Virus record (IMG/VR): IMGVR_UViG_3300021090_000021
Location: 1-61,596 of that record
DNA from: a virus
Lineage: Duplodnaviria > Caudoviricetes
DNA: 61,596 bases
Reading direction: 5' to 3' (one strand)
Part shown: positions 16,433-56,943 of the stretch, one piece after another
How positions within the stretch are numbered: position 1 is the first letter of the stretch
Layout of the letters: each line of letters begins with the position of its first letter
Translations under genes and position numbers: made by a program
The notes under the pieces: model-generated
Database searches by the model: none
The model's input: only the letters and a program-made list of their open reading frames with translations
Told to the model about the DNA's origin: nothing

Positions 16433-16436
16433 CGCA

Positions 16437-21071: not shown

Positions 21072-21079
21072 GGTGTCGA

Positions 21080-32702: not shown

Positions 32703-32733
32703 GAGCCCCGGTGCAGTGGTTGCACCGGGGCTC
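32703..32733 (-). terminator. Perfect 13-bp hairpin in the late leader
   Basis: gagccccggtgca-gtggt-tgcaccggggctc. Confidence 0.55.
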
Positions 32734-32835
32734 GCTCTGCCTGATATGCCATGGAGAAGCCCGAGATCATCGCATGATGGAACTCCGCGTTTGATCAGAG
32801 ACGGCCGACGATCAGCCCCGCCACCCTTTGATCTG

Positions 32836-32868
32836 AAAAGCAAAACCCCGGCCGCGAGAGCGCCGGGG
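32836..32868 (-). terminator. Terminator after the NusG-like gene
   Basis: ccccggc/gccgggg stem followed by TTTTGCTTTT on the - strand. Confidence 0.6.
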
Positions 32869-32899
32869 ATTACCATTGCACAGCACTTAGCGTGGTACC

Positions 32900-35039: not shown

Positions 35040-35403
35040 TCACACCGCGTCGATGCCGGCCGGCTCATCCAACGAGCCGGCGGCGTCGATCTGGTCGAGG
35101 TGAAGAGTGATGGCGTCCGATACGACGCCGGAGATGCTCTCGCCGTGCTGCGCACAGAACCGCGCGAGTGCGGCCGCTATAGGCGCCGGGATGACGACCG
35201 CGACCCCGCCCCCCCCCTATGGCGAGATCTGATCTACCGAATCTCGATAGAGATCCGCGTTCCGTCAGGCTCGCGACAAGACGCTGCGCGTTCGATCGAT
35301 TGCACCCGAGCTCGCTCGCGAGCGAAGCCAACGACGGCATGTGACCGTGCCGACCGATGAAGCTGATGACGGTATCGAGCGCGCGTTTCATGGCCTTCGT
35401 CAT
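35040..35403 (-). pseudogene. LexA-type HTH plus ribbon-helix-helix-like regulator, frameshifted at a G9 tract
   Basis: HTH (G.MPSL..LA..LG) then G9 at 35209-35217; G8 would restore VAVVIPAPIAAALARFCAQHGESISGVVSDAITLHL. Confidence 0.6.
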
Positions 35404-35792
35404 CGCTGCTGCCTCTCGCGCATTTGGTCCAGGGCGGAGTAGCCCGGCAAAGGATCATCGAAGAATTCGGACGTCAGGTCGTCGCGCGCAAGGCTCAGAT
35501 CGCGACGGCGATCGCGCTCGGCGAGCACATCCTCAGGCACGCGCGCCGGTGGGCCGGACCCGCCATAGGCATGGCCTCGCCCGTTGGCCTGCGTCGTCTT
35601 CTTGTAGTTGCGGTGATACTGGCGCTCGGCTTCACGCTGGGCCGGCGTCATTTTCAGACGGCATAGTTTCGCATAGGTCGCGCCCTCATTCAGACCGAGG
35701 CGAGCATCCACCTGGCGGCATTGCAGACCTGATTTGAGGAGCACCTTGGCGCTCGCCAGCAGATTGTCGGTCCATAAGGTTTTGCGGCCCAT
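35400..35792 (-). CDS. GcrA-like N-terminal HTH phage protein
   Basis: WTD.L....K.L..SG......RLG; C-terminal DPLPG.SAL. Confidence 0.5.
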   Translation of the reverse strand: MGRKTLWTDNLLASAKVLLKSGLQCRQVDARLGLNEGATYAKLCRLKMTPAQREAERQYHRNYKKTTQANGRGHAYGGSGPPARVPEDVLAERDRRRDLSLARDDLTSEFFDDPLPGYSALDQMRERQQR

Positions 35793-36103
35793 CAGGCGAC
35801 CTCCCTCTCCTCAAGCGCCTGCGCACGGACGGTGACGGCGAGCGGGCCGCATAGCTCGCCCGCACAGTCGAGCCACTCGGCGATCTGCTGAAGGGCTATT
35901 GCGCGTGCAATGCCGATACACGTCGCCGGCCGCAGCCGCATCGGCCCGCCATCTGTTGGGAGGTGACATTGGACGAAGAAGGCGACCTTCGTGCCGAAGT
36001 TATGGGGATTGATATGCGCCACGCGTAGGGTGCCGAGCATCACGTGCTCGCGCCCCGACGGAAGGCGATTGAAGGTGACGGGAGGAGACGTGATGGTGTT
36101 CAT
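35792..36103 (-). CDS. Hypothetical protein
   Basis: Overlapping start/stop on both sides. Confidence 0.5.
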   Translation of the reverse strand: MNTITSPPVTFNRLPSGREHVMLGTLRVAHINPHNFGTKVAFFVQCHLPTDGGPMRLRPATCIGIARAIALQQIAEWLDCAGELCGPLAVTVRAQALEEREVA

Positions 36104-38625
36104 GCCGCCTCTCCTTCGGCCGGCAGAAAATCGAACAAGGTCGGCACCGACGCCTGACGCTCGGCGTCCGCACAATAGTGCGCAGAATCGCGCCAATACT
36201 GTTCCGAAAGCTCGCTCGATTTCCCGCGGCGACCCTTCAGGATCGCCCGCACCGGAACGGTGCCGATGCCGCCGAACGGATCGTAGACCAGCTCGTCTCT
36301 ATTGGAGAACCGCTCGATGCAGCGATCGACGATGTCGAACTGCAGCGGGCAGATATGGAATTCAACGTTGCGGCGAAGCTGCTCGCCGTTGAGCGTGCGC
36401 ATCCGATTGATATTGTCCCACACCATCGGGTCGAATGACCCCGGCGCGAGCGCCATGAACGATGACGGCAACGCGTTGCGGACCTCGAGCGCCTCGCCGA
36501 TCGTGACGTGTCGGTCATAGTCGTACGGTTGGAACCGGCTCTGTTCGCGGAACAGCTTCGCGAGCTTGTCCGGTGGCAGCGCTGCAAGCTCCTCGGGCGT
36601 CAGCAGACGCTGTCCGCTCGAGCGCCAGAATGCATGCGCATCAATCTGCCAGCGCGCAAGCGAATAGTCCGACTTTTCGCGTCGCACCGGGAGGTCGGCG
36701 TAGCTCTTCGAGCGATCCGACTGAGGCTTGTGGAAAAGCAGCACGTATTCGGGTGATCCGACGCCGACCTTGGTGCCGTCCTTGCACATCTCGGTATATC
36801 CGAGCCTGTAGTTGCCGTTGTTCTCCCGCACGACATCGGTAACCACGGTGATGGCTCCGCAATAGTCGAAGCCGTGACGGCGGTAGTGGAAGATCGCCTC
36901 GGCATGGAACGGCGAGATCGTCGGCAGGCCTGCGCCAGTCATATTTCCGAACAGCACGCGGTCCTTGACGTGGATGCAGGCCAACCGACCGGGCCGCAGG
37001 ATCCGCAGCAGCTCGGGCGTGAGGAAATCCATCTGCGCCCAGAAATGGTCATTGTTGTCGGTGTGGCCGAAGTCTTCATAGTTCGTCGTATATTCGTAGT
37101 GATTGGCGAACGGCACTGAGGTGATGATCAGGTCGACCGACGCCTCGCCCGATCGCTTCGCCTCGTCGACAGCGTCATTGTTAACGACGCTGTAACGCTC
37201 GCCGCGAGCCTCCTTGCGTGGCACACCGATCTTTCGCTTGAGCGTGCCTGCAAGGTCGACGTGCCCCAGGCCGTACTTGCGGATGATCTCGCTCATACGC
37301 TTCGACTGCTCGTCGTGCGCTGCCCATTTGCGCTCGAGGTCGGCGCGGATCTCACGCTCGGCTTCGGTATAGATGAAGCGCGCCGTGCAGGCCTGCGTCT
37401 GCCCGAAGCGGAGGGTGCGATGCAGCGCCTGGATAATGTCGTGGAACTTGTAGTCGATGCCGACGAAGATCATCTCGTGGCAATGGCGCTGCCAATTCGG
37501 ACCGGCACCGCAGATTTCCGGCTTGGTCGACATCTCGCGGAACTTGCCGTCGGCGAAGTCAATGATGCGCCGCTCCCGCTCGTCGAGATCGAGCGTTCCG
37601 AACACAGCGAGTGAATTTGGGCGCGCCTGCTGGATCGCATGTCGCTCATCCTCGAGGTGGTGCCACAGGATCCGGTGCGTTGCTGGCTCGGCCTCGATCA
37701 ACTCCACCATCCGGGCTACTCGCGCCCCTATGGAGGCCCGTTTCTCTTCAGCCGCATCCTTGAGCCCGCGCGCCGAATCCTTGATCAGCACGCCCTGCCC
37801 ATCCCGCTCAGGCGCCGCCGTGGCGTGATCGCTCGGCACCTCGTGCCAGGTCACCTCCAACGGAGGCATCACGTAGCCATCGTCCGGATAGCCGAGATCC
37901 GACGGCCGCTGGATCATCACCGCCCACGACGACACCCACAGCCAGAATTCCTCTTCCTTGTGCGGGTATAGCGTGAGCTCGTTCGCCTGCGTAGAATCGC
38001 GCTGGAAGAAGCGCGTGAGGGCCTGGCCGGTGTCCATCACCTCGAGGAAACCGGCGTAGTGAATAAGCTCCTTGATGCGGTTGGGGTCCGGTGTCGCGGT
38101 CGCCGGCATCTTGAAGCGGATACCGGAAAACAGCGGCAGAAATTCCTGATAAGTCTTAGAGCCGTAGGAGCGCAGCACCGCCGCTTCGTCGAGCGTCACA
38201 CCGCCGAAAATTTTTGGATCGAGCTTTCCGTCTCGGATAGTTTCGTAGTTTGTCAGGTGATGGACGGCCGGATCGTCCTCGATCTCTCGTTCGGCGCGCA
38301 CGAACTTGAGCCGCACGCCCAGCCGGTCGAAGCCACGGTCGACCACCTCGCGGGTGAACTCCTGACGTACGCCTAGCGGCAGCACCGTACAGAACGGCAG
38401 ACGCGTGTGCCGACGGACCTGGCGGCCGTATTCGAGTTGCATTGCGGTCTTGTGCAGTCCGAACGACGCGAACACCGCGCGCCGGCCGCCCCGCAGCGCC
38501 CAGGCGACGATGTCGCGGCAGAAGGGCTTGAGATCCGGGCTCAGCTCTGCAGGATCGACTTCAAAGCCGGTCGCAGGCGCGAGCCTGATCTTATCCTCAA
38601 GGAAGGCCTTGTAACGATCGCTCAC
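36100..38625 (-). CDS. SNF2-like helicase fused to N4/N6 DNA methyltransferase
   Basis: FGLHKT, LDEA, TATP.PN, QA.HR..RFGQ; MTase ITSVPF, HICPLQ, DPFGGIG. Confidence 0.9.
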   Translation of the reverse strand: MSDRYKAFLEDKIRLAPATGFEVDPAELSPDLKPFCRDIVAWALRGGRRAVFASFGLHKTAMQLEYGRQVRRHTRLPFCTVLPLGVRQEFTREVVDRGFDRLGVRLKFVRAEREIEDDPAVHHLTNYETIRDGKLDPKIFGGVTLDEAAVLRSYGSKTYQEFLPLFSGIRFKMPATATPDPNRIKELIHYAGFLEVMDTGQALTRFFQRDSTQANELTLYPHKEEEFWLWVSSWAVMIQRPSDLGYPDDGYVMPPLEVTWHEVPSDHATAAPERDGQGVLIKDSARGLKDAAEEKRASIGARVARMVELIEAEPATHRILWHHLEDERHAIQQARPNSLAVFGTLDLDERERRIIDFADGKFREMSTKPEICGAGPNWQRHCHEMIFVGIDYKFHDIIQALHRTLRFGQTQACTARFIYTEAEREIRADLERKWAAHDEQSKRMSEIIRKYGLGHVDLAGTLKRKIGVPRKEARGERYSVVNNDAVDEAKRSGEASVDLIITSVPFANHYEYTTNYEDFGHTDNNDHFWAQMDFLTPELLRILRPGRLACIHVKDRVLFGNMTGAGLPTISPFHAEAIFHYRRHGFDYCGAITVVTDVVRENNGNYRLGYTEMCKDGTKVGVGSPEYVLLFHKPQSDRSKSYADLPVRREKSDYSLARWQIDAHAFWRSSGQRLLTPEELAALPPDKLAKLFREQSRFQPYDYDRHVTIGEALEVRNALPSSFMALAPGSFDPMVWDNINRMRTLNGEQLRRNVEFHICPLQFDIVDRCIERFSNRDELVYDPFGGIGTVPVRAILKGRRGKSSELSEQYWRDSAHYCADAERQASVPTLFDFLPAEGEAA

Positions 38626-40277
38626 TGAGAATGGCCTCCCGGGATCGCGACAATCTCTCTGCCTGCTGGCGCCTGACGCGGGAGGAAAGCGGGGATATCC
38701 ATAGGGTCAGGCTTGGGCGCGCCTGCCACATCATCTCCCGCCTTGCAGCACGGAAACGTCAGCGCATCGAGAGTGAACGAGCCCGCGTTCGCATTGTCAG
38801 GGCGAGACGCGGGCTCCCGGCCGGCACCAGGGTGATCACCTCCGAGCGACCCGCTGCCATTCCCGACGATTTCCTGGGCCATGGCGGCCCGCGATGCCTT
38901 CGACGTCTCGGCCTCACCGGCCGATGGTTCGATCAACTCTCCGGTTTCCGCGTGGTGTGCCGGGATGAGCGATACCCATTCCTCCGGCGTCACGAACGCG
39001 GCTGGTACCAATGCGCCATCCGGCAAGCGCACCATGCCATGCTCGTTGGTGAGCGCACGCTGCGCCCGCGTCAGTGGCTCGACCTCGTTTCCCCAGGCCG
39101 CCCAGCCCGGGCGCGGCGGCCCGCGGCGGTTGAGCTCGATCTTCACCAGCGTCGGGAAATAGTCCTCCAGCATTTCGAGGAAGCATTCGGGCTTGGCCGA
39201 ATGCTCGCTCTTCTTCGCCATGATGAGTGAATCCCACTGCGTGCCTGGCGCGGGACACGGGGGCGCGCCGCGCGTACCGATCAGGAGCAGCTCGTGTTTG
39301 CCGCGGTTCCATCGGCCGAGCGAGATGCGATCCTTGCCCCAAGCGTAGTGTGATTTGTATATGAAGCCGCGCAGCTTCATCACATCCATCGCGATGGCGA
39401 GGTGCTGGATCGTCGACCACATCCACAGCATGCAGCCCCTGGGATCGACGATGCTCTCGATTGAGCGGCGCGCGACAATCTCCTCCGCGGTGTGCGCGTC
39501 CTCGCTCACCGGATAATGATTGGCGGCGTGCCTATCCATTCCGGTCTCGCGGCTATAGACCGTGTCGTCCCATTCGTAGTCCTCGAGGATCAGGCCGCAC
39601 TTGAGGTCGGGCAGCGTGCGCTGGAGCTCGCCAAGTTCGACTTCGCGGGCTGCGCGGGCCTCCTGCTTGATCACCTTACGGACCACGTTGGCGTGGCCGG
39701 CCTCGGCTTCGGCAGCAATCCGGCGTTGCTGGTCAGGGCCGAACGTCACGGCTTGCGCGGCCGCCGAGACGGCGAGCTTTCCTTGCTCCACGGCCCGCAC
39801 CAATTCCGGATCGGCCTTGTCGAGCACCGTGTCGGCGCGCTCAACTGTGCGTTTGCCGACGTTCATAATCTTGGCCCGTTCGGCTTGTGACTTTTCGCCA
39901 ATTGGCGAAAGGTCGGTCCGAGCCCCCTGCCCCAAGCGCGCGACGCGCGCGGCCGCCATGGCCCGCTGGCTCTCGTTGAGGTGGCGTCGTTTCAAATTCT
40001 TCGAAATGACAAACGTAAGCGGATCGCCCTCCCGATCAGGTAGAAATTTAGCGAAATGTTTGATGAAGATCGGCGTGCCGCCTTTGATAGGACCCTCCGC
40101 GCTGAACAGCCCGGCGGCAATCGCGGCGTTGTATCGGTTGCGGCCGTCCAGAACTTGTCCGTCGTGAACCACAATCCGTTCGCGCAAGCCATTGACCTTG
40201 ATATCGACCACGAGCTGCTCAAACTCATCGCCTTCAATGAGTGGGAAGATGTTCGCGAGCGGATGGAACGGGATCAT
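38622..40277 (-). CDS. ParB-like domain fused to MT-A70 family adenine methyltransferase
   Basis: HPLA..FP, LDGRNRY, NL.RRHL..SQRA; NHYP, W.K, HE.LL.G.RG, HS.KP, W..WGNE; catalytic DPPW appears as DYEW. Confidence 0.88.
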   Translation of the reverse strand: MIPFHPLANIFPLIEGDEFEQLVVDIKVNGLRERIVVHDGQVLDGRNRYNAAIAAGLFSAEGPIKGGTPIFIKHFAKFLPDREGDPLTFVISKNLKRRHLNESQRAMAAARVARLGQGARTDLSPIGEKSQAERAKIMNVGKRTVERADTVLDKADPELVRAVEQGKLAVSAAAQAVTFGPDQQRRIAAEAEAGHANVVRKVIKQEARAAREVELGELQRTLPDLKCGLILEDYEWDDTVYSRETGMDRHAANHYPVSEDAHTAEEIVARRSIESIVDPRGCMLWMWSTIQHLAIAMDVMKLRGFIYKSHYAWGKDRISLGRWNRGKHELLLIGTRGAPPCPAPGTQWDSLIMAKKSEHSAKPECFLEMLEDYFPTLVKIELNRRGPPRPGWAAWGNEVEPLTRAQRALTNEHGMVRLPDGALVPAAFVTPEEWVSLIPAHHAETGELIEPSAGEAETSKASRAAMAQEIVGNGSGSLGGDHPGAGREPASRPDNANAGSFTLDALTFPCCKAGDDVAGAPKPDPMDIPAFLPRQAPAGREIVAIPGGHSQ

Positions 40278-43874: not shown

Positions 43875-44540
43875 CTATTCCTCCGGGCCCATGCCGTCGC
43901 CGCCGCTCTCGATGCGCCAGCCCTTGTCCCAATGCGCGCGGCGGGAATCGCCGAACGGGAACGGGTTGTTGATGATGGGGACATCAGCCTTGAACGCGGC
44001 ACGGCCCAACTTGATGGCGCCGTCGGAATCGACATCGGGAACGTCGACTTTCGGCGGCGCGGCGGGACGCTTGGCCGCACCGGCCTTGCCGGGCTCGACC
44101 GGCGTCTCGATGACCTCGGTCACGGAAATGTTGCCGTCCTTGTCGCGGGTCAGGCGAACCGGCGCACCGCCGGCCTCGACCGTGATCGATCCGTTTGCCG
44201 GCACGAAGGACTTCATCGCCTCGATCACGGACTCGCGTGCGGTGATGTCGACCTTCATCAGGCCGACGGCGCGGAACAGCGGGTTATCCGCCGCCATGCC
44301 CATGGCGTGCAGATACATGTCCTCCAGCGCCTCGGCTTCTGCGCGATCCGACGGCTTCATCTTCCGTTTCTTGACGATGTAGCGGATGTCGGCGGGGATC
44401 AGGTTCGCGGCCTTGGCTTCGGCCATGACGACACCCTTGTCCTGCTGGAGCTGCTTGATCTGTGCGTCGAGGTTCTCGACACGCTCGACGAAGCCACGCA
44501 GTAGCTCGCCGCCGATGGTGTTCTGGCCGATGCTCATCAT
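43875..44540 (-). CDS. GapR/DUF2312-like nucleoid protein with C-terminal extension (RMF-like motif)
   Basis: LRGFVERVE.L......D...V.AEAK...R.IVK.RK..R.E.EA...Y..A.GM; C-terminal NPFP...W.KGW. Confidence 0.8.
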   Translation of the reverse strand: MMSIGQNTIGGELLRGFVERVENLDAQIKQLQQDKGVVMAEAKAANLIPADIRYIVKKRKMKPSDRAEAEALEDMYLHAMGMAADNPLFRAVGLMKVDITARESVIEAMKSFVPANGSITVEAGGAPVRLTRDKDGNISVTEVIETPVEPGKAGAAKRPAAPPKVDVPDVDSDGAIKLGRAAFKADVPIINNPFPFGDSRRAHWDKGWRIESGGDGMGPEE

Positions 44541-45553
44541 GATGCCTCCGATGTAGGATGCGTAGCGGCTGCAAAGCCGAGACTGCGGATCAGATTGGCG
44601 CTGTCGGCGAACCGCGCGTGGCCCAGCCAGGCCGTCAGGAACTGCTGCAGCCGATCGTCGTCGCCGTTGGCGCGGTAGGACGCGATCTTGCGCCGGGCGC
44701 GGACCACACTGTCGCGGCGCAGCAACTTATGACTTGGCCAGATGCGATAGCCGAGGAAGTTCACGCCGCGCGAGATCGGTGCAATCTGCCACTTGGAAAA
44801 GCGAAGGCCGAGCTCGGCGCGAGAGAACACCTCAACGCTCGCCTTGACGCGACGCAGGTGCTCGCTGCTCGCGCCGAGCACGACCAGATCGTCCATGTAG
44901 CGGTACCAAAACCGCTCACCCAGGCCCTGCTGCAGGTGCCGGTCGAGCGTGGCGCCGGTATAGTAGTTGGCGAAGATCTGCGAGGTGAGGCTGCCGATCG
45001 GCAGGCCGATGCCCGCACGCGGCACCATGGTGGTGAGCAGGCGCAGCGTCGCGCGGCAGCTGATCTTGGCTTCGATAAGCCGCCATAGGGTCGCCAGTTC
45101 GATTGAGGCGAAATAGCCGGAGAAGTCGGTCTTGAGGAAATAGAGCGGTTCGGACGGATCGCGCGATAGCCGCCGCAGGTCGCTCTGCAAGAGCCGCACA
45201 CCGGCATGCGTGCCCTTGCCCGGGCGGCAGGCGAAGGCCCGCGGCAGCAAGGCACGATCGAAGATCGGCGCAATGACCAGGCACAAGGCCTGCTGCGCGA
45301 CGCGGTCGCGGAACGGCAGGGCCGAGATCAGCCGGCGCTTGGGATCGAAGATCAGGAATTCGTTGGGCGTCCCCGGCCGGTAGGTGCCGTCCGCCATCTC
45401 CTCGGCGAGTGCTGCGAGGTTGAGCGCGTCATATTCCTTGAACGCGAGGTAGCTCGGCGTCAGGCGCTTGCCGCAGCAGGTCAGCCGGTACGCCGCCTGC
45501 ATCGTGCAAAAGTCGGTGATGCGTGCAATCAGGTTGCGATAACGCTTTGCCAT
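44537..45553 (-). CDS. brt: DGR reverse transcriptase
   Basis: PK.R.I.A.PFRDRV.Q, ACR.GKGTH, LK.DF..YF.SI, GLPIGSLTSQ (DGR-type SQ motif), RYMDD, FLGY. Confidence 0.96.
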   Translation of the reverse strand: MAKRYRNLIARITDFCTMQAAYRLTCCGKRLTPSYLAFKEYDALNLAALAEEMADGTYRPGTPNEFLIFDPKRRLISALPFRDRVAQQALCLVIAPIFDRALLPRAFACRPGKGTHAGVRLLQSDLRRLSRDPSEPLYFLKTDFSGYFASIELATLWRLIEAKISCRATLRLLTTMVPRAGIGLPIGSLTSQIFANYYTGATLDRHLQQGLGERFWYRYMDDLVVLGASSEHLRRVKASVEVFSRAELGLRFSKWQIAPISRGVNFLGYRIWPSHKLLRRDSVVRARRKIASYRANGDDDRLQQFLTAWLGHARFADSANLIRSLGFAAATHPTSEAS

Positions 45554-45740
45554 GGGTGACCTAGGGAAAGCCGGCCGCGGGTCTCGACGGGTTTCCCCGC
45601 TACGCCCCGCTCTGCCGGACCGTGAAATGTGTTCGCCGAAGCAGGACAGGCGGGCTGACCACCGATCGCGATCACAAAGCATGTGAACGCGAGTGGCCGG
45701 CCGGCGGGACCGTGATCGCCGCCGAGCCGCAAACCGGTCG

Positions 45741-45868
45741 TCACCGCGGCCGCGCGCACCGATGTTGTCGTCGGAATTGTCGGGCCAGTTGTACGCGACG
45801 TTCGCGTAGCGCGAGCCAGCGTTGTCGCCGTTGTACCAGCTGCCGCCGAACATCGAGGCGCGGGGCAT
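45741..45868 (-). repeat. DGR template repeat (TR)
   Basis: 128 bp matching 46333-46460 except at 10 positions, all TR adenines; 24 adenines, six Asn codons. Confidence 0.97.
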
Positions 45869-45870
45869 CA

Positions 45871-46281
45871 TCATCGTTTCCCCGCCTGCCCCATCGGACG
45901 CGCGAGCGCGTCCGAACTCTGTTGCCCGAGCTTCCTTTGCCAGGCGCCCAGCATCCGCCCCGGCTCCGACAGCAACGCCAGCGCGGTGCCGTGCTGATGC
46001 GGGGTGAGGATCCTGATGCCGTCCCTGACGAGGAAACGCAGATGTGACCGCAGGGTCGCGAATTCGGCGTCGACGGCATGAAGCCTCGACACCTGCCGCG
46101 ACCGAGCGGCGTGATAGAGACCTCCGATCGGCACGAACAGTGCCGCGAGCACGATGTCACGGATGACTCCGTGCCGCCGCGGCGCATTCTGCAGGATCGG
46201 ATAGAGATAGGTCACGAAGGCCTCATATTTTTCAACGATCGCCAGACCGTCAGTTGCAAGGTTGTCATCCCTGGCGATCAT
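45871..46281 (-). CDS. avd: DGR accessory variability determinant
   Basis: L.IVEKYE....YLYP..QN.PR.H...RD...L...DA..A.LR..LRF...E.G.MLG.W; lies between target and TR. Confidence 0.93.
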   Translation of the reverse strand: MIARDDNLATDGLAIVEKYEAFVTYLYPILQNAPRRHGVIRDIVLAALFVPIGGLYHAARSRQVSRLHAVDAEFATLRSHLRFLVRDGIRILTPHQHGTALALLSEPGRMLGAWQRKLGQQSSDALARPMGQAGKR

Positions 46282-46293
46282 CGTTGGACCGGG

Positions 46294-46315
46294 AGCCGTC
46301 GCTGTCGCGACGGCT
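46294..46315 (-). promoter_or_regulatory. DGR target-recognition hairpin/cruciform downstream of VR-IMH
   Basis: Perfect 9-bp stem agccgtcgc/gcgacggct, loop GACA on the coding strand, overlapping the target stop codon. Confidence 0.88.
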
Positions 46316-47237
46316 AAGCAAGTTGCAGGTGATCACCGCGGCCGCGCGCACCGATGTGGCCGCCGGAATTGTCGGGCCAGTTGCACGCGACGTACGCGCA
46401 GCGCGAGCCAGCGTAGCCGCCGGAGTACCAGCTGCCGCCGAACATCGAGGCGCGGGGCATGTAGGGATCTCCGTCGTGACCCCAAGCCCAGAGATTGCCG
46501 GTCGCCTGCATGAGACCGAACTTGCTCGTGCGCGGCGCGTCGAGGCCCGTGACCTTGGGGTCGTCGCGGCACGACGACTTTTCCGTGACGCCATAAGCTG
46601 CCGCGAAAAACTCCTCGGGTCCGAGCAATCCCTTGCGGTGATGCTTCATCACCGCCACGGCGGTGTCGTAGTCGAGCTTCTTGAACGTCCCGCCGGCCGG
46701 CTTGAGCGGCGGGTCATCGCCGTCCGCGATCAGCACACCGAATTTGCTGGTGCCGTCGCCAACATGATTGACGCCGAGCAGATAGATGTCGGCCCAGAAC
46801 GTGCGCCCGGGCACGTCGACCAGCGCCATGCCGCGGGGATCGGGACATGCCGGCCGGAAGTTGATGTCCCAGAGCGAGCAGGGATTGATCGCGGGCACGG
46901 TGTCACCGCCGCTGCGCGCGGTCGCATTGCCGCCCGGTGCGAAATGAAAACCGCCGAGCAGGATGTCGCCGTGCGGAATGATCGTGGTCCGCGCGATCGA
47001 GACCTCGCCGTCCCTGACGTGCACCTCGTAGTCCGCGCCGGCGATGTAGCCGGGCTCGCCTTTCTCGTTGAGATGCAGCGAGACCGGCGTGTCATCGGTA
47101 AAACGATGCCCGGCGAAGATCGTGCCGGCCTTGATGACGATCGCGGACGATCCGGTCACCTTGAAGACCGGCGATCCCGGGTCGGGCTTGACCAGCCGCT
47201 GGGCGGTGTCGGCCGCAACAGACGCGCGCTTGTTCAT
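46314..47237 (-). CDS. mtd: DGR target: Mtd-like C-type-lectin-fold protein lacking the N-terminal anchor domain
   Basis: Blocks recalled from BPP-1 Mtd: IKAGT, GGFH.APG.NA, SLWDI.FRP...DPRGM.LV, FWADIYLLGVNH..DGTSK, TSK.G..QA.G.LW.WG, FGG.W, GSR, GARG..DHL. Confidence 0.92.
   Translation of the reverse strand: MNKRASVAADTAQRLVKPDPGSPVFKVTGSSAIVIKAGTIFAGHRFTDDTPVSLHLNEKGEPGYIAGADYEVHVRDGEVSIARTTIIPHGDILLGGFHFAPGGNATARSGGDTVPAINPCSLWDINFRPACPDPRGMALVDVPGRTFWADIYLLGVNHVGDGTSKFGVLIADGDDPPLKPAGGTFKKLDYDTAVAVMKHHRKGLLGPEEFFAAAYGVTEKSSCRDDPKVTGLDAPRTSKFGLMQATGNLWAWGHDGDPYMPRASMFGGSWYSGGYAGSRCAYVACNWPDNSGGHIGARGRGDHLQLA
46333..46460 (-). repeat. DGR variable repeat (VR)
   Basis: 3' end of the target gene; GC-rich element GGTGCGCGCGGCCGCGG followed by divergence from TR (IMH vs IMH*). 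Confidence 0.97.
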
Positions 47238-47240
47238 GTG

Positions 47241-48437
47241 TCATGGCTCCATGCAAAAGGCCGGCGACCCGCCGGCAGGGTTCGATGAATTCGGTGATGC
47301 AATCTCCGCTCGGAGCGGAAAGCCGTTGTGCTCGACGCCGTCGAGCAGGCGTCCGGCGGCTTTCTTGCCGACGTGGATCAATGTGGAACCGTCGCTGTGG
47401 TGCTCGAGCCTGTCACATCCCGTGTTGGCCAACAGCTGAGCGTCGGAATAATTGAGAGGCCTGTGTGGTGCCCATGGTTTGCCGTCGATCAGTATCCGCG
47501 ATGGTCCGCGCTGAATGATGCTCAGCCATTCATCGGCGTCGATCCATTCGCCGTTCTGCTTGTGGAAATAGGCAACACCGGCCGCTTTGCATTGGTCACG
47601 CAACGACGCAAACCATGCACGCGGAGCACCGCGCGCCTTGCTGCCGCTCTCGCCGCCGGTGATGAGCCAGTCGAGCTTGCCCTGCGATGCGTCGACGTAC
47701 CGCAAAGCATCGAACCCATCGGAGATGTCGTCGGACTCTGGATAGCGAACATGCCCCGCGCCCCACGGAATATCGGTCAGGTCGATCGGCGCCAGCAACG
47801 GTTCGCAGGAGACACAGCGCAGCGCAGCCTTCGTGTTGAGCAAGATTGGAATAAATTCGTCAGCCTCCGCCTGATTGGATACGGAGGTGCCTTCGATGAC
47901 GTTGCGCAATGGCAGGCGTGGCAGCACATGCTTTCCGCCGAGGCTTTCCGGCCCGCGAACCACTTTCTCGGCGGCCAGCTCGATCGCGTTGTGGCGGCGC
48001 GGACCGTCAAGGTATTGCCGCCGCCGCTCGGGGCGCTTGCTTAGATTGATGTATGTGTGCTGCGGGGTGAGAGCCATCACAGCGTAAAGCTGGTCGATAA
48101 ACTCCGTCGGCCACCACTCGCCGAAAGCGTCGCTCATTGATTCCACGAAGATCTTGGTGGGCTTCTTCCGCCTGAGCGGGGCGAGAAGCTTCTCTTTGTC
48201 GACCGTGAAGCGATAGCGGAATCGGTTGCCGGGCTTGAACTCCAGGCCGCCGAGGCGGAAGTTGCCCTTCCCGGCGTAGCAGAACCGGCAGGCCTCATTC
48301 ACGTGCTCGCAATGGTGCGCGGAGACCGTGATGGTCTTTCCCTTGCGTTCGATCTCGCGCTCGGCGCGCAGCGCATTCCAGGACTGGCCCTTGGATCCGT
48401 CGGCGCCGAGCAACCATTCGATGGAGGTCTCAGCCAT
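47241..48437 (-). CDS. DUF5131 / phage Gp37-Gp68 family (radical-SAM-like) protein
   Basis: TSIEW, CEHVNEACRFCYA, FV.SMSD.F, TP.H.Y..L.KRP, S.EPLL, W.I.GGESG, GKK.AGR.LDG. Confidence 0.92.
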   Translation of the reverse strand: MAETSIEWLLGADGSKGQSWNALRAEREIERKGKTITVSAHHCEHVNEACRFCYAGKGNFRLGGLEFKPGNRFRYRFTVDKEKLLAPLRRKKPTKIFVESMSDAFGEWWPTEFIDQLYAVMALTPQHTYINLSKRPERRRQYLDGPRRHNAIELAAEKVVRGPESLGGKHVLPRLPLRNVIEGTSVSNQAEADEFIPILLNTKAALRCVSCEPLLAPIDLTDIPWGAGHVRYPESDDISDGFDALRYVDASQGKLDWLITGGESGSKARGAPRAWFASLRDQCKAAGVAYFHKQNGEWIDADEWLSIIQRGPSRILIDGKPWAPHRPLNYSDAQLLANTGCDRLEHHSDGSTLIHVGKKAAGRLLDGVEHNGFPLRAEIASPNSSNPAGGSPAFCMEP

Positions 48438-48636
48438 CGCGGCCTCCGAGATCTTCCGCGAGCTTAGCGATGGCGAACCTCAGCAACGCGCGGATGCCCA
48501 ACTCGCCATCGACGATGTGCTTCGCCAGGTCGCGGTCGTTGCCTTCCGGCGATCCGATCGTGTCAAGCGCGCGGTGCACCGCGGCGGCGCCGGTGAGAAC
48601 GGCCGTAAGATCGTGGCTTGGTGCTCGATCGGCCAT
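48430..48636 (-). CDS. Hypothetical protein
   Basis: Coupled small ORF. Confidence 0.45.
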   Translation of the reverse strand: MADRAPSHDLTAVLTGAAAVHRALDTIGSPEGNDRDLAKHIVDGELGIRALLRFAIAKLAEDLGGRDG

Positions 48637-48860
48637 CAGTCCGGTGCCTTCTGGTTCGGCCAGTCGCGCATGTCCTCGACGACGCTGAAGGCCTCATTGA
48701 CCTTGTCAATGTGACAGCCGGCGGCCTTGGCGCGGATCGCCCATTGCTCAACGAGGTCGGCCGCAAGTGCGTCTTGTGCGCGCAGCACGAAGAACGGCTC
48801 GTCGGGGGCAAGCTTGGCGAGACAATCGAAATGGCCGGGGTGGTTCTTCGTCGACATCAA
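48636..48860 (-). CDS. Small phage protein (DEP.FVLRAQD motif)
   Basis: DCL.K..PDEPFFVLRAQD..A..LV..WA. Confidence 0.7.
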   Translation of the reverse strand: MMSTKNHPGHFDCLAKLAPDEPFFVLRAQDALAADLVEQWAIRAKAAGCHIDKVNEAFSVVEDMRDWPNQKAPD

Positions 48861-51037
48861 ACGATCTCCCCGTGCGCCGCCATCAGCGCGATCGCAATCG
48901 GCTGCACCCAGATCGGCTCCGACGACAGAGTGAAGGTCTCGCCCGACCAGGCGCCAAGCAGCGTACGGCCCATGACGCCGGCAATCGCCGCCGCGGCCGG
49001 CGGCGGCACCGCGTTGCCAATGCGCTCACGCCAAGCGGAATCGGAGAGGCCATCGAGCTCGAGCGTCTCGTCGGGATCGACTAGCCCTTGCAGGGCCGCG
49101 AGCTCAAGCGTGGTGAACGGCCGGTGCCAAGTGTCGTCGAGCGCGCGAATGACGCAGACGAGCCGGTCGCTCGGCCCGGGCAGCACATCATCGATGCGCG
49201 GGTCGGCGACCGAGTTTCGGCCGTTGTCATGCTGACCGGCGCCGGTGACACCGCCACACGGCTCGCACCATGGCACCACGCCGTAGTTACCCGCGGTCAG
49301 GTATTTGCTGCGGCCGTTGCGGGTGAACTCGGGACGCGGGTCCGCGACCGCCCCCGCACCGCTGCCGACCTGCTGCGCGCCGGTCACGCAGCCAGCAGCC
49401 TCGTCCCAGGCGTTGACGCGCATCTTCGTGCTCGACGCACCTGGATGCCAGTTGGCATAGCGGGGATCGGCAACCGCGAAAGCACCGTTGCCGGTGGAGC
49501 TCGCGCCGATCACGGCGCCGGCCGCCTCCTCGTAACCGGTGACGCGGTACTTCGTCTGCTTGTAGTCGCCCCGCGGCGATTGCCGCGGATCGGCGACGCA
49601 CAGCGCACCGCCGGCAGGGTGATGAGCCGCGGTCACCGTTCCGCCGTTCTTATCCCACCGCGTCACCTTCAAGACGTGATGATGGGTATTCGGACCGAAA
49701 CCGGTGCGCGGATCCGACACCGCAAGGCCGCCACCTGGCCCACCGGATCCTGCAACCGCCGGCGCGTGATCGCCCCAGCGCACGATGCGATACACATTAT
49801 TGAAGCGTGGATTGCCCTGGATCCTCGGATCGGCCACCGCATTCGGCCCGCCACCGGCGAACATCTTGCCGGTGACCACGCCGGCGGGCTGATCCCACGG
49901 CCGCACACCCAACTGCACCGACTTCGGATGGCCGTCGATGCGCGGATCGGCGACACTGTGAAAGCCGTTATTCGGGTAGCTGCGGCCGGGCACCGTACCG
50001 GTCGGCTTGTGCCACTGGCGAACCCCGAGCACGTGCGCGTTGTAGATCTCATGCACGCGCGGATCGGCGACAGCATGGGCACCACCCCCTGGTGCGCTCC
50101 GGCCAGTGACGGTCGCCGCCGCCTCTTCCCAACGGCGCACGCCGAGCACGCTCGCCGCCCACGGGATTTCAGGAGTAATCGCGAAGTCGCGCAGTACACC
50201 GTCATCAACGGCAAGCTTATTGAGGGAACGCCAGTCCGAGCCCGCCTCAACGAAGGCAAGCCGCACCCAGGTCTTCCAGTGCAGCGCCGGCATGCGGTGC
50301 ATCGGGCCGCCCAGTCCGGAGAGCGGCAACGGCAGCTTGTCCAGGACCTCGCCAACGCCGCGCAGCGGACGTTTGACCGGCTCATAGAGGAAGTTCGGAA
50401 TCTTGGCGGCGTGGCGGGCGACCAGAAGGAAGCGCTTGCGGCTCTGCGCGAGGCCGCCGATCTCGCCGCAGTCGTGCGTCGTCTCTGCGACCGCATAGCC
50501 GTAAGCGCGCAGCAGCGCCACAATCCGGTCGAGTAGGAAACGGCCACGCGTCGCGATGCGCGGCACGTTCTCGAATACGATCAGCTCTACCGGATCGTCC
50601 TTATACGCCTCGAGCGCGAGCCACACGCCCCGCAAGGTGAGCCCGTTGAGCGCCTGATATTTGGCGCTCGTCGACATCTTCTCGGACAGGAGCCCTGAGA
50701 AGCCCTTGCACGGCGCCGACAGGAAGAGGATGTGCGGATGCTCATTCTGTAGCGCGTGGCGGATGTCGTCGGGCACCGCCTCACGCCAGCCGTCCGGCGG
50801 CGCGACCCCGAAGAAGTCGCGATATTGCTCGGGCGAGAACAGGTCGAGCCTGGTCGCCTTCACGCCGGCGAGTCGCCCGAAGTCGGCGCAGCCGGCAGCG
50901 TCGTGGTCGATGCCGCCCAGGCAGCGAAAGCGCGCCTGCAGATTGCCAACACGCGCCTCGCCGCGGTTGAAGCCCTTGGCGCCGCCGCCAAGGCCGCAGA
51001 ACAGATGGCCCACGTTGATATTGACGGTGCGCATCAT
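48857..51037 (-). CDS. C5 cytosine DNA methyltransferase with eight internal V(A/S)DPR repeats
   Basis: FCGLGG, SAPCKGFS, FENVP, QSRKR, RP.T..ELAALQ, IGNAVPP. Confidence 0.93.
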   Translation of the reverse strand: MMRTVNINVGHLFCGLGGGAKGFNRGEARVGNLQARFRCLGGIDHDAAGCADFGRLAGVKATRLDLFSPEQYRDFFGVAPPDGWREAVPDDIRHALQNEHPHILFLSAPCKGFSGLLSEKMSTSAKYQALNGLTLRGVWLALEAYKDDPVELIVFENVPRIATRGRFLLDRIVALLRAYGYAVAETTHDCGEIGGLAQSRKRFLLVARHAAKIPNFLYEPVKRPLRGVGEVLDKLPLPLSGLGGPMHRMPALHWKTWVRLAFVEAGSDWRSLNKLAVDDGVLRDFAITPEIPWAASVLGVRRWEEAAATVTGRSAPGGGAHAVADPRVHEIYNAHVLGVRQWHKPTGTVPGRSYPNNGFHSVADPRIDGHPKSVQLGVRPWDQPAGVVTGKMFAGGGPNAVADPRIQGNPRFNNVYRIVRWGDHAPAVAGSGGPGGGLAVSDPRTGFGPNTHHHVLKVTRWDKNGGTVTAAHHPAGGALCVADPRQSPRGDYKQTKYRVTGYEEAAGAVIGASSTGNGAFAVADPRYANWHPGASSTKMRVNAWDEAAGCVTGAQQVGSGAGAVADPRPEFTRNGRSKYLTAGNYGVVPWCEPCGGVTGAGQHDNGRNSVADPRIDDVLPGPSDRLVCVIRALDDTWHRPFTTLELAALQGLVDPDETLELDGLSDSAWRERIGNAVPPPAAAAIAGVMGRTLLGAWSGETFTLSSEPIWVQPIAIALMAAHGEIV

Positions 51038-51699
51038 ACTGAAGCTCCCCCGTGCTCGCTGCGCGTCTTGTCGTGGGCGAGCGTGCGCAACGCCGGCAGC
51101 AGCGCTCGCCAGCGATTGAGGAGTGCGGTTTTCGCCGTCTCCCAGCGCCACGGCACGATCACGTCGCGCAACGGCTCGATGCCGGCATAGGGCACTGGGT
51201 TCGGATGCGGCCGATTGCCCATCAGGTCGCGCCACTCCGTGGTGAACATGATGAGGTCCCAGCGCTTGACCGCAGTGACGAGCTGCTGCGGCATCGGCCA
51301 TTGGAGGCCGGCGGCGGCGTGGATGACGACGTCGTGCCGATCCTCGAGCTTCTTCATCGACGCCAGGACCTGCTCGGCGAGGATGCCGAACTCCTGCTGG
51401 CATATTTCAGCGATCGCGTGCTTCTTCGGCGTGGTGTCGTCCTTGAGGACCGCCTCGGGACCATCGTGAACGGAGAAGTATCCGGCGAGCACCGGATCCT
51501 TGGTGGCCTGCATGATCGCGTCGATGCCGCGCGAAAGATGCTCGCCGACCGAATATTCGACGCCGGGCGTGGCACCGTTGAAGCGCTTCTCCTTGGTGAG
51601 CTGCTCGGCATAGGAGTCGAAGTCAACGTCGGACGCTTTCGGATGGAGCAGGTCGATACCGCGGCCGTTGGCCAGTGTGAGGATGGTGGCTGCGCTCAT
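51034..51699 (-). CDS. HD-domain phosphohydrolase (YfbR/5'-deoxynucleotidase-like)
   Basis: RFNG.T...YSV.EH, HD..EA...D..TP.K, VK..D.....E.RDLM. Confidence 0.85.
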   Translation of the reverse strand: MSAATILTLANGRGIDLLHPKASDVDFDSYAEQLTKEKRFNGATPGVEYSVGEHLSRGIDAIMQATKDPVLAGYFSVHDGPEAVLKDDTTPKKHAIAEICQQEFGILAEQVLASMKKLEDRHDVVIHAAAGLQWPMPQQLVTAVKRWDLIMFTTEWRDLMGNRPHPNPVPYAGIEPLRDVIVPWRWETAKTALLNRWRALLPALRTLAHDKTRSEHGGASV

Positions 51700-52457
51700 G
51701 TGGCGGACCCTCCAATGAGCGGAAGCTCTGACGTTTCCGGCGCTGGCTCATAGATCGAGCGCGCAGTGAGAACCTTCGGCTGAAACACCACAGCACCCGC
51801 ATGCTCGTCGACCACCAGCACGCCCTTGTTGCAGGCGAGCCAGAGCATGGAGTCGACCGTTGCGATGCTGTCACCGCTGCGCTCGGCGAGATGACGGCAT
51901 AAGGCCATGCAGGCCGGAAACCGCAGCTCGATCCGGCGGCGCGGCTTGTCAGGGAAACCGGTCAGCCGACAGAGCCAGATGTCGGGCTTGCAGACGTCGG
52001 CGCCGAAATTCTTGGCGAGCTGGAACTTGGTGTCGTCGCCGACATACGAGAGGTTGCCGCACCATTCGACCAGCTTCTCGGCGTCGGCGAGCGCGAGCAC
52101 GGCCTGCAACTCGGCGAAGAGATCGACGCGGCCATACCATGCCCGCTCGATGGCGACGGCCTTGGCGTGATATCCGAAGGCTTCCACCACCGGCCGGGCG
52201 GCATGGATCGCATCCCACACCTTGTGCTCGATCGTGCGAGCAGCCTGGGCAGAGCGACCGGCGCAGAGGATAATCCAGACGATCTCACCGGCCATGTCTT
52301 CGGCGGTGGCCGGCGGGTTGAGTTCCTTCGTCGACCATCGCAACATCTCCGGCGCATCGACATCGTGCGCGAGCAGCCACGTGCTGACCTCGCCATAGAG
52401 GCCCGGCGGGACCCGGGCCGCCGGCGCGGGCACAATGAAGTTGGAGCGAACGCTCAT
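51696..52457 (-). CDS. Helix-hairpin-helix / DNA glycosylase-fold-like protein
   Basis: W.IL.AG, L.YVG..T...LAKNFG.DV.KPD.WL.RL, VD..LW. Confidence 0.6.
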   Translation of the reverse strand: MSVRSNFIVPAPAARVPPGLYGEVSTWLLAHDVDAPEMLRWSTKELNPPATAEDMAGEIVWIILCAGRSAQAARTIEHKVWDAIHAARPVVEAFGYHAKAVAIERAWYGRVDLFAELQAVLALADAEKLVEWCGNLSYVGDDTKFQLAKNFGADVCKPDIWLCRLTGFPDKPRRRIELRFPACMALCRHLAERSGDSIATVDSMLWLACNKGVLVVDEHAGAVVFQPKVLTARSIYEPAPETSELPLIGGSAT

Positions 52458-52813
52458 GGCCGTCCGCCTTCCTTGAGCATCGAGTGCCAACCGCGCAGAT
52501 GCGCCTTCTTACGCTCCGCGCGCTCGGCCATCCGAACCTCGTCCAGCCCGAAATGGTTTTTCACCAATTCGATGTTGGCCAAGACGTCGGCTAGCTCATC
52601 CTCCAGCCATTCGCGATTGAGATTGTTGGTGACGGGCTCGTGCTCATCGATGCCCTGGATGATGCAGCGAGAGACGGCGCTGCCAGCCTCATCCAATTCT
52701 TCGCTGAGCTTGCCAAGATGCGCCAAGTCGATCGGGCGCGTCATCGGTTGCCACGGATTGAGCGCCCACGACGTCGCTGGATCGTCTGGCTTGTGGAGCG
52801 GGTGACCGCTCAT
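52454..52813 (-). CDS. MazG-like NTP pyrophosphohydrolase
   Basis: KL.EE..E......R, N...LE.E.ADV. Confidence 0.75.
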   Translation of the reverse strand: MSGHPLHKPDDPATSWALNPWQPMTRPIDLAHLGKLSEELDEAGSAVSRCIIQGIDEHEPVTNNLNREWLEDELADVLANIELVKNHFGLDEVRMAERAERKKAHLRGWHSMLKEGGRP

Positions 52814-53133
52814 GCGCGCACCTCCCCATGAATAAGAGCGCCGGCCGGATGGAGACTGGGCGGATGGTCCGGCCGGCGACGATCGACCGATGGAAGAAGA
52901 TGAACATCGGCCAAAGGGAAGAAGAACTGTCGCGGTCGCCTTTGGCTGGCGAAGAATAGAAGCGCAGCAATGACGACGGCGATGCAGATCGCAAGCCAGA
53001 ACGCGAAGGCGACCAGCAGAGCCAGCGACACGAAGCTGGCGACCCATGTAAACAGGGCCAAGATCACAATTGTGACGAAGAAGAACAGCGCCATCGCAAG
53101 GGTGGAGATGATGTCGAGGAATTCTGTGAGCAT
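52810..53133 (-). CDS. Small membrane protein
   Basis: About 55 consecutive hydrophobic residues. Confidence 0.5.
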   Translation of the reverse strand: MLTEFLDIISTLAMALFFFVTIVILALFTWVASFVSLALLVAFAFWLAICIAVVIAALLFFASQRRPRQFFFPLADVHLLPSVDRRRPDHPPSLHPAGALIHGEVRA

Positions 53134-55416: not shown

Positions 55417-55674
55417 TCATCGCCCAACCTCAGCTTGAGCGACCGCGTCCTGCTGCGCGCATGGCGGCAGAAACTCGTCCGCAACCAGCGGAATGTCGTT
55501 GTCGCGCGCATATCCCAGCAGAGCCGGATGATATCGTTGGGGAATGAGACCATCCGTCCCGCCTTTGTCGCGCGGCTGCTGCCAGCGATAGGGCGCCGTG
55601 TAGGCCGTACCGGTGATCTTCGAGACCACTGCCGGGCCGCCCAACCGTTTGATGATCGTTTGTGCCGGTTCCAT
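55417..55674 (-). CDS. cro: Cro-like repressor
   Basis: II..LGG...V...G......Y.W...G.IP; divergent from cI. Confidence 0.8.
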   Translation of the reverse strand: MEPAQTIIKRLGGPAVVSKITGTAYTAPYRWQQPRDKGGTDGLIPQRYHPALLGYARDNDIPLVADEFLPPCAQQDAVAQAEVGR

Positions 55675-55684
55675 GTGCCGAGTA

Positions 55685-55760
55685 ATTTCCGATTTTCCGA
55701 AATCGATGTCAAGCGTATTTCTGATTTTCCGAATTGCACGGCTTTCTGTTTTCCAGAAAG
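55685..55760. promoter_or_regulatory. OR-like operator triplet with divergent promoters
   Basis: 19-bp atttccgattttccgaaat (55685), atttctgattttccgaatt (55717), ctttctgttttccagaaag (55742); TTGACA on the - strand at 55707-55712. Confidence 0.85.
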
Positions 55761-55767
55761 ATCGGGG

Positions 55768-56316
55768 ATGGACGGGAAAGATATCGAGGCCCTGTTTGAA
55801 AAAACGGGCAAGAAACGCATAGACTTAGCCAAGCGCTTCGGAGTGCAGCCGCAGCAGATAACGGCGCTGACCCAGGGCACGCGCCTGTTGAAAGCTCACG
55901 AGCTCCCAATCGTCCGGGACTTCTTCGGGCTCGACGAATCAGTGCCACTCAAGGGTTACGTCGGCGGCGGCGGTTTGGTTGCTAGGCACACAATCGACGA
56001 GGACCAGCTCGCACGCGTCTCCGGGCCCCGCGACGCCAGCGAAGCAACCGCTGCCCTGGAGATCCGAGGCGACAGCCTCGGCGCGGAGGTGGATGGGTGG
56101 GTCCTATTTTTCCAGGATGAAAAACAACGGCCCACCAAGGCATTGAACGGGCTGTGCGTGGTCGGACTATCCGATGGCCGCGTGTTGTTGCGGCGAATTC
56201 AACCCAGCCGATTACAAAAGCGTTATCATCTCACCCTTGGCGGCCAGGCTCCGATCCTGGATACGCCGATAGAATGGGCTTCGCCGGTCGTTGCCATGGA
56301 GCCCAGGCGCAAATAG
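55768..56316 (+). CDS. cI: CI-like repressor (HTH + S24-like domain)
   Basis: DLAKRFGV....I..L..G.R.L; VPL.GYVG.G; ALEIRGDSL. Confidence 0.85.
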   Translation: MDGKDIEALFEKTGKKRIDLAKRFGVQPQQITALTQGTRLLKAHELPIVRDFFGLDESVPLKGYVGGGGLVARHTIDEDQLARVSGPRDASEATAALEIRGDSLGAEVDGWVLFFQDEKQRPTKALNGLCVVGLSDGRVLLRRIQPSRLQKRYHLTLGGQAPILDTPIEWASPVVAMEPRRK

Positions 56317-56889: not shown

Positions 56890-56943
56890 TTTTCCGATTT
56901 TCCGAAATCATGACTTGACCAATTTCTGATTTTCCGAAATACT
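56890..56943 (+). promoter_or_regulatory. OL-like operator pair and PL-like promoter
   Basis: Same 19-bp operator at 56890 and 56922; TTGACC-17 bp-AATACT. Confidence 0.85.

Follow-up and report, generated by a model that had tools for sequence, protein, structure and literature searches.

The targets of phage diversity-generating retroelements (DGRs) are usually treated as tail adhesins that are encoded together with the tail genes. A DGR cassette at positions 44537-47237 of the IMG/VR virus record IMGVR_UViG_3300021090_000021 raises the question of what it means when such an element lies elsewhere, among DNA-modification genes and at a distance from the tail module. The stretch analysed here (the window) is the whole of that record (61,596 nucleotides, 61.6 kb), which is 94% complete according to CheckV. 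The phage is a temperate virus of the siphovirus type, encoding a tape measure and a major tail protein, and its host group is that of soil and freshwater alphaproteobacteria of the Hyphomicrobiales type. The DGR itself is ordinary, being a further member of the BPP-1 type; what is unexpected is the early-region placement of a truncated Mtd throughout the clade of short Mtd-type targets to which it belongs (the short clade), and the functional meaning of this placement is read from gene order alone. Our overall reading, which we regard as reasonably probable, is that the cassette represents a sequence-functional BPP-1-type DGR, carried in the early region as a portable module and equipped with a short target of the Mtd type.

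The variable repeat (VR; 46333-46460, minus strand) forms the final 42 codons of the target gene, while the template repeat (TR; 45741-45868, minus strand) contains 24 adenines, of which 10 occupy first, 14 second and none third codon positions. The two repeats aligned without gaps over 128 nt with 10 mismatches, every one of which falls on an adenine of the TR in minus-strand reading (five A>G, three A>T and two A>C), and the hypergeometric probability that 10 random mismatches would all hit 24 adenines among 128 positions is 8.6e-9. A repeat search returned the TR/VR pair as the largest direct repeat of the region (133 nt at 91%), the end of the homology being marked by two non-A mismatches at 45739-45740. 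The alignment thus reproduced the TR and VR coordinates, the 10 differences in 128 positions and the 24 TR adenines given in an earlier note on this DNA, and the translations yielded the same peptide changes that it had listed (NGDN>SGGY, YANVAY>CAYVAC and DDN>GGH). With 10 of 10 mismatches at TR adenines, the BPP-1-type signature of past activity that the note had proposed is borne out. A search of the record with the TR for a second VR returned only its own VR and an 18-nt chance match.

The remaining parts of the cassette follow in the order target(VR)-hairpin-avd-TR-spacer-reverse transcriptase (RT), all on the minus strand, as had been described earlier. The 3' end of the VR resembles an initiation of mutagenic homing (IMH) element (46315-46357, minus strand) and comprises a G+C-rich segment identical in TR and VR (46333-46357) and 18 nt found in the VR only (46315-46332); an IMH-like function is suggested by analogy with BPP-1, as that system is described in PMC5758913. 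A hairpin (46295-46314, minus strand) with an 8-bp G+C stem and a GACA loop begins at the last base of the TAG stop codon, its stem extending to 9 bp if the flanking A-T pair 46294/46315 is counted, and the hairpin of BPP-1, GCGGGGCC-GAAA-GGCCCCGC, has the same position and form. At the stop codon, 60 of 81 short-clade targets and seven of 12 BPP-1-like targets have a hairpin with a GNNA loop and a stem of 6 bp or more. Its inner stem takes 17 distinct forms, and in the 60 short-clade targets the hairpin is conserved through compensatory changes. The avd gene (accessory variability determinant; 45871-46281, minus strand) encodes 136 aa with a match to Pfam bAvd (E 1.1e-23) and 44% identity to BPP-1 Avd. 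Between TR and RT lies a region at 45554-45740 (minus strand) consisting of the IMH*-like TR end and the spacer (Sp) of the DGR RNA, the core of which aligns with 14 relatives and BPP-1; this alignment supports 33 consensus pairs, 14 of them with compensatory changes. The RT (44537-45553, minus strand; 338 aa; Pfam RVT_1 E 2.4e-17) shares 54% identity with BPP-1 Brt over 322 aa and contains the motifs IGSLTSQ and YMDD, which are diagnostic for RTs of the DGR clade. Judged at the level of sequence, the cassette is a complete BPP-1-type DGR, every feature by which such an element is recognised being present: an A-specific TR/VR pair, an RT, an Avd gene by the TR, IMH and IMH* with an inverted repeat, and a conserved spacer RNA.

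It was also observed that the RT frame lacks a stop codon over a long distance ahead of the RT start, across the spacer and the TR; it is open for 201 codons in this phage (45553-46156) and for 233 in BPP-1, and the TR of this phage is in frame with the RT. Of 53 loci, 39 have an upstream opening of 90 codons or more, and the median is 143 codons as against 52 and 19 in the other two frames; this may be a composition effect of G+C-rich DNA.

From these features we infer that retrohoming is still active. The contrary view, that the element is a relic whose VR was diversified in the past and which is now inactive in this phage, is in our estimation improbable. All parts are intact (an open RT with its catalytic motifs, Avd, a TR with 24 adenines, the spacer core and the hairpin), and the 128 nt of the repeat hold no non-A mismatch, whereas drift after inactivation would tend to have added some. 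The observation that speaks for a relic and against present activity comes from the assembled contigs of two DNA sequencing runs, one of them the probable source: among the variants listed, none fell within the VR. As rare variants are lost from contigs, this is no evidence either way. The probable source run also contained contigs of at least one related RT gene, 85-95% alike, over 44870-45330, and several related DGR phages coexist in the source sample.

A retrohoming mechanism taken from BPP-1 fits every cis- and trans-acting element seen, the roles of the cis elements being those given in the part of PMC5758913 that describes BPP-1. According to this scheme, the RT together with Avd would reverse-transcribe the TR-spacer RNA and misincorporate opposite TR adenines, after which the cDNA would take the place of the VR in the last part of the target gene. 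The IMH-like end with its high G+C content and the GNNA hairpin that begins at the stop codon would direct this replacement, through which the ligand-binding face of a C-type-lectin domain could be altered at up to 24 first and second positions of its codons. The product would be a short stand-alone protein of the Mtd type, with beta-sandwich and lectin domains, that joins the virion in trans, and its gene would be transcribed with those of the DUF5131 and GapR-like proteins before the late unit.

The Pfam and PHROG map confirmed that, as noted earlier, the cassette lies away from the tail module, between the genes for a DUF5131 protein upstream of the target (47241-48437, minus strand; Pfam DUF5131 E 1.8e-60; phrog_2045) and a GapR-like DNA-binding protein downstream of the RT (43875-44540, minus strand; Pfam GapR_DNA-bd E 8.4e-17). 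The genes are tightly packed: the ATG of the target is 3 nt past the DUF5131 stop codon, and the overlap of the RT stop with the GapR-like start, likewise described before, is the ATGA at 44540-44537. The cassette belongs to a long array of co-directional genes that begins at a strand switch. Along the minus strand, with coordinates falling, a cro-like open reading frame (ORF) is followed by genes for unknown proteins, a MazG-like pyrophosphohydrolase, a deoxynucleoside monophosphate (dNMP) phosphatase, an 848-aa C5 methyltransferase-like protein, the DUF5131 protein and the DGR cassette, and then by those for the GapR-like protein, an AAA ATPase, several unknown proteins, a ParB-methyltransferase, a helicase-methyltransferase, a weak GcrA-like ORF, a replication-initiator O-like protein and a NusG-like protein. 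After the NusG-like gene and a terminator come phrog_1924, the small and large terminase, portal, protease, capsid and tail genes. Approximately 8 kb thus separate the cassette from the strand switch upstream of it and 11 kb from the NusG-like gene and terminator downstream; the tail genes are 23-28 kb away. The tail module (14090-21502, minus strand) was delimited by PHROG matches to a major tail protein (21080-21502), a tape measure (17891-19948), a baseplate-wedge-like protein and a tail fibre (14090-16432), all on that strand.

Two features appear to bound the transcriptional region in which the cassette sits. At the upstream end, the strand switch and putative immunity region (55421-56316, both strands) consists of a cro-like ORF (55421-55673, minus strand) and a cI-like ORF (55771-56316, plus strand). 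An operator-like repeat, GATTTTCCGRA (GATTTTCCGAA), occurs five times where 0.17 occurrences are expected, at 55691 and 55723 in the gap between the cro-like and cI-like ORFs, at 56896-56938 upstream of the rightward genes and at 58880-58890, two pairs being spaced by 32 nt; these repeats are candidate operators of the phage repressor. The earlier claim that the cassette is downstream of a cro promoter is only partly borne out: a strand switch with paired operator-like repeats is present at 55.4-55.8 kb, the cro-like ORF has no family match, and the cI-like ORF matches a repressor family (phrog_4) only at E 0.0086. At the downstream end, a region on the minus strand (32703-33607) comprises the NusG-like gene (32900-33607; Pfam NusG E 4.2e-7) and a terminator with a 13-bp stem (32733-32703), directly upstream of phrog_1924 and the terminase genes, and looks like an antiterminator-controlled boundary between early and late genes. 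A NusG-like homologue occupies the same relative position in one of the related viral loci (L064). A promoter scan of the minus strand between 36 and 56 kb gave no promoter-like site.

Relatives were surveyed for the same arrangement. A search for target homologues gave 1163 matches at E <=1e-10 among 2276 candidates, and the 120 best listed were mostly of about 300 aa, with source names including Bradyrhizobium, Afipia, Rhodopseudomonas, Pseudolabrys, Rhizomicrobium and Xanthobacteraceae; in addition, nine of 301 genomes sampled from the family of one metagenome-assembled genome among the matches carried a target match. A collection of 50,697 cultured phage records contained no short-clade target, its 14 matching records including none from a Hyphomicrobiales host. 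In five related prophage loci from these genomes the cassette has as recognisable neighbours genes for ParB-methyltransferase, DUF5131, GapR, AAA and helicase-methyltransferase proteins, with terminase, portal and capsid genes further downstream on the same strand. A profile scan of IMG/VR gave 285 relatives, the best 80 of which were kept as 78 loci; removal of seven duplicates and of 13 BPP-1-like loci (12 with targets at 41-46% identity and L089, a BPP-1-like podovirus contig at 51%) left 58 non-redundant short-clade loci. The commonest clusters of neighbouring genes in these 58 loci encode ParB-methyltransferase (19), DUF5131 (13), C5 methyltransferase (12), an unknown 169-aa protein (12), DUF7220 (9), an unknown 643-aa protein (8) and GapR (7), and smaller clusters comprise DUF2303, DUF4326, DnaN, Dam, MT-A70 and primase-type proteins as well as integrases. 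Terminase, portal, NusG-like or phrog_1924 genes are visible in the flanks of 10 of the 58, in every case downstream and on the same strand, at some 2-8 kb from the RT (or from the target in L066, which gave no RT match). The BPP-1-like loci have bbp9/bbp10 upstream or bbp4 downstream. Beside the short-clade cassettes no homologue of the tail proteins of this phage or of BPP-1 was found, with the qualification that tail proteins diverge fast and that some of the neighbour clusters are unannotated.

Placement among early DNA-modification and replication genes is accordingly clade-wide. The possibility held open by the earlier note, that relatives always carry the cassette by tail genes, was not what the survey returned: the five prophage loci, the 58 viral loci and the 11 full-length records described below all have it among DNA-modification or replication genes. 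Past diversification is also evident in the clade: among the 67 short-clade TR/VR pairs with a length of 90 nt or more, all but one show three or more A-mismatches and no more than one of another kind; the 67 pairs total 780 A and 17 non-A mismatches, under a scoring that favours A-mismatches.

Two further observations were made on these loci. Many relatives carry two Mtd-type targets (L046, L055, L059, L072, L087, L100 and others, as well as G123:C1 and G054:C16), arranged in tandem or separated by as much as 10 kb, in some cases on opposite strands, and both VRs match a single TR with adenine-specific differences; the phage of the window has one target. A number of contigs end inside or at the target gene or VR (G001, represented by L006/L008, G002:C353, G002:C445, G072:C271 and G203:C491), G001 being a circularly permuted record whose two ends meet inside the VR, which is what assemblies broken by the TR/VR repeat or by VR heterogeneity would show.

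What the placement signifies depends on when the cassette is transcribed. Gene order alone predicts that it is co-transcribed with the early genes, before the late unit that runs from terminase to tail, and we consider this to be somewhat the better supposition, favoured as it is by the close spacing of the genes, by the strand switch with its operator-like repeats and by the apparent boundary at the NusG-like gene and terminator. Several results weigh against it. The assignment of the immunity region is affected by the weak repressor match of the cI-like ORF and by the cro-like ORF, which matches nothing. A terminator-like hairpin at 47260-47276 (GCCGGCG-GGT-CGCCGGC, seven G-C pairs, then CTTTTG) falls in the terminal part of the DUF5131 ORF; 22 nt separate its end from the target start, and it could cut the cassette off from upstream transcription. 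Lastly, a same-strand ORF ending within 100 nt upstream of the target was identified in only 20 of 51 relatives, using a crude ORF caller, and many relatives may therefore possess a promoter of their own. A conserved promoter or terminator upstream of the target was considered and rejected, the terminator-like hairpin being present in only one of 55 loci.

These points lend some substance to the view that the placement has no temporal meaning, the cassette having landed in a recombination-tolerant accessory region where it is transcribed late, either from its own promoter or by antiterminator read-through. In its favour, the immediate neighbours vary among relatives (ParB-methyltransferase, DUF5131, DnaN, RepO-like and integrase genes), 31 of the 51 relatives lack a closely preceding same-strand ORF, in several of them no more than 4-7 kb separate the cassette from the terminase genes downstream, and in this phage the hairpin precedes the target. 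Nevertheless, the 3-nt gap between DUF5131 and target leaves no room for a promoter and that strand has no promoter-like site, the hairpin is peculiar to a single locus, and the NusG-like gene with its strong terminator lies 11 kb further downstream, the NusG-like gene of L064 being similarly situated between cassette and late genes. On balance we regard late expression as possible but doubtful, and early co-transcription is retained as the preferred prediction.

The cassette also appears to be independent of the backbone that carries it. Comparison of the window with the 62-kb record G001 revealed DNA-level sharing of the cassette only, and at the protein level (tblastx, 1e-8) the two share the cassette and a fragment of the GapR-like gene only. 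Among 11 full-length records, the only families common to at least nine are RT (10), Mtd (10) and Avd (9). The head modules of these records are of the HK97 type (portal, terminase and capsid) in seven, of the lambda type, as in this phage, in three, and of neither type in G001; in all 11 the cassette is far from the head genes and beside methyltransferase, ParB-like, DUF5131 or replication genes. On the basis of gene content, the cassette is a portable module that occurs across otherwise unrelated phage backbones.

The target (46314-47237, minus strand) is a short Mtd-type protein of 307 aa with a beta-sandwich (mtd_2nd) and a C-type-lectin domain that ends in the VR. It matches phrog_11262, annotated as 'tail protein', at E 2e-78 and the Mtd of Bordetella phage at 40.6-42.4% identity across 95% of the query, and its match to Pfam mtd_2nd (PF21916; E 1.3e-5) passes the cut-off of that family. 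Against the Mtd structure PDB 1yu3 (E 1.9e-51), residues 15-306 of the query align with 57-380 of the 381 residues of the chain; the N-terminal 56 residues of BPP-1 Mtd are thus missing, and most short-clade target genes begin at the same point. An AlphaFold2 (AF2) model built with 38 close homologues has a mean pLDDT of 57, with residues 11-100 confident and residues 205-307 below 50, so that the lectin fold rests on the sequence match to the Mtd structure. Assessed by sequence, the two C-terminal domains of the target place it in the Mtd family, and the two features of the BPP-1 prototype that it does not share are the N-terminal part and the location in the tail module. The missing N-terminal part, the clade-wide placement and the cassette as sole element common to unrelated backbones had received no mention in the earlier note.

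Homology would make the target a receptor-binding protein on the virion, and we lean towards this assignment with modest confidence. All relatives that have been characterised or annotated are tail proteins (Mtd of BPP-1, the Mtd-domain proteins encoded in the tail modules of Marinomonas phage P12026 and the Synechococcus S-CBS phages, and phrog_11262), and Mtd of BPP-1, too, is a separate protein, bound to the fibres non-covalently. Virion attachment is called into question by the loss of the 56 N-terminal residues and by the failure to find a partner: an all-against-all BLAST of the 11 full-length records gave no shared tail protein family, the tail fibre of this phage was not found in the 10 other related records, and the N-termini of short targets do not sort by head-module type. 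Longer proteins gave a mixed picture. Of 152 longer target homologues (539-2000 aa), a single one falls in the short clade, and it carries ParB_N and no tail domain; the others are 36-46% identical, and the few with a second recognised domain have collar, T7-tail-fibre, collagen or DUF2793 N-termini, as does L111. The N-terminal extensions of four short-clade ORFs contained no tail domain, one having a weak ParB_N/DUF6551 match below the cut-off.

The missing N-terminal part, the lack of a co-conserved tail partner and a neighbourhood of the anti-restriction type leave room for a role away from the virion. The short Mtd-type protein could be an early-made, soluble, hypervariable lectin-like binder that functions in the infected cell or after release, for example on variable host defence or surface molecules, so that the DGR would tune the binder and not the host range; this seems to us unlikely. 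The cassette does lie in the kind of region that in phages houses accessory and anti-restriction genes, among them those for orphan methyltransferases and ParB-like proteins, and the target sequence has no hydrophobic N-terminus or signal peptide. The same view would accommodate the sharing of nothing but the cassette with G001, the restriction of common families to those of the cassette in at least nine of 11 full-length records with two types of head module, and the fusion of the one long short-clade protein to ParB_N instead of a tail domain. It is opposed by the uniform tail assignment of the known relatives, by the collar, T7-tail-fibre or collagen-like N-termini of some longer homologues (36-46% identity), and by the non-covalent attachment of BPP-1 Mtd as a separate protein. 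A still bolder extension, to which we give little credence, would have the short Mtd-type lectins of the clade as no part of the tail but early, DGR-diversified free binders, a phage 'antibody-like' repertoire that serves within or near the infected cell, perhaps against variable host defence or surface factors, on a module that moves between unrelated backbones. Attachment to the virion in trans continues to be our preferred assignment for this protein.

Comparison with known systems places the element close to the prototype. The BPP-1 DGR (mtd-avd-TR-brt) has the same gene order, with RT, Avd and target being 54%, 44% and approximately 41% identical, and the same adenine-specific TR/VR differences, G+C-rich IMH-like end, 8-bp GNNA hairpin at the stop codon and spacer RNA core. 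In contrast, BPP-1 has mtd at the close of its structural module, behind the tail-fibre gene bbp9 and ahead of lysis genes, whereas the present cassette is among early DNA-modification genes; many relatives of this phage have two tandem diversified targets; and BPP-1 is short-tailed, unlike the siphovirus-type phage studied here. The tail proteins with an Mtd domain that are encoded by Marinomonas phage P12026 and by Synechococcus phages S-CBS1 and S-CBS3 match 76-79% of the query at 36-38% identity; these matches take in the beta-sandwich and some of the lectin domain and end short of the VR part of the target. The P12026 gene is the last of its tail module, after tape measure and tail fibre, and no RT or Avd is annotated in the stretch of P12026 examined.

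In the survey of Wu et al. (2018; PMC5758913), 12 of 372 DGR targets were of the Mtd type, one of them with a tail-collar fibre motif. Long Mtd-type targets with tail-fibre N-termini (category 'a' of that study) resemble the present one in having the Mtd second domain and a C-type-lectin (CLec) VR. They differ in being 36-46% identical and, in those with a second recognised Pfam domain, in having Phage_tail_fib, Collar, T7 tail or collagen-like N-termini, and where the context is known they stand behind bbp9/bbp10-like tail genes. The cellular DGRs of Legionella (LdtA) and Treponema (TvpA) follow the same logic of mutagenic retrohoming on a C-type-lectin VR scaffold, as outlined in PMC5758913, but LdtA and TvpA are surface-displayed cellular proteins of other CLec subclasses, whereas the present target is a phage-borne true Mtd homologue without a signal peptide. 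The accessible portions of the literature, including PMC5758913, PMC8144416 (Roux et al. 2021) and PMC6642488 (Yan et al. 2019), contained no statement on the position of the cassette in phage genomes or on this clade, and the supplementary list of 12 Mtd-type targets of Wu et al. may include members of it.

With regard to the surrounding genes, those for nucleotide and DNA modification are packed around the cassette at 36100-40277 and 47241-53047 and comprise the MazG-like pyrophosphohydrolase, the dNMP phosphatase, the C5-methyltransferase-like protein (848 aa), DUF5131, ParB-methyltransferase and helicase-methyltransferase; together they may constitute a DNA-modification or anti-restriction block. 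A small ORF at 35400-35792 has a weak GcrA-like match (E 0.004) that is below the cut-off, and with GapR it would make two alphaproteobacterial cell-cycle-type DNA-binding proteins in one phage. An integrase is encoded at 58816-59988 on the plus strand, and a 1416-aa ORF (76-4326) at the distal end of the tail region had no PHROG match.

While phage DGR targets are commonly expected to be encoded with tail genes, the large uncultured clade described here departs from that arrangement. Were the cassette to be expressed early, retrohoming would be able to act on phage genomes throughout replication, and the diversified protein would be made long before tails; if that protein is not on the virion, it would represent a new viral use of targeted hypermutation. 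The findings also sound a caution for annotation pipelines, as the label 'tail fibre' given to a DGR target from homology alone ignores its gene context. The clade offers a concrete and testable case of these possibilities in culturable soil bacteria.

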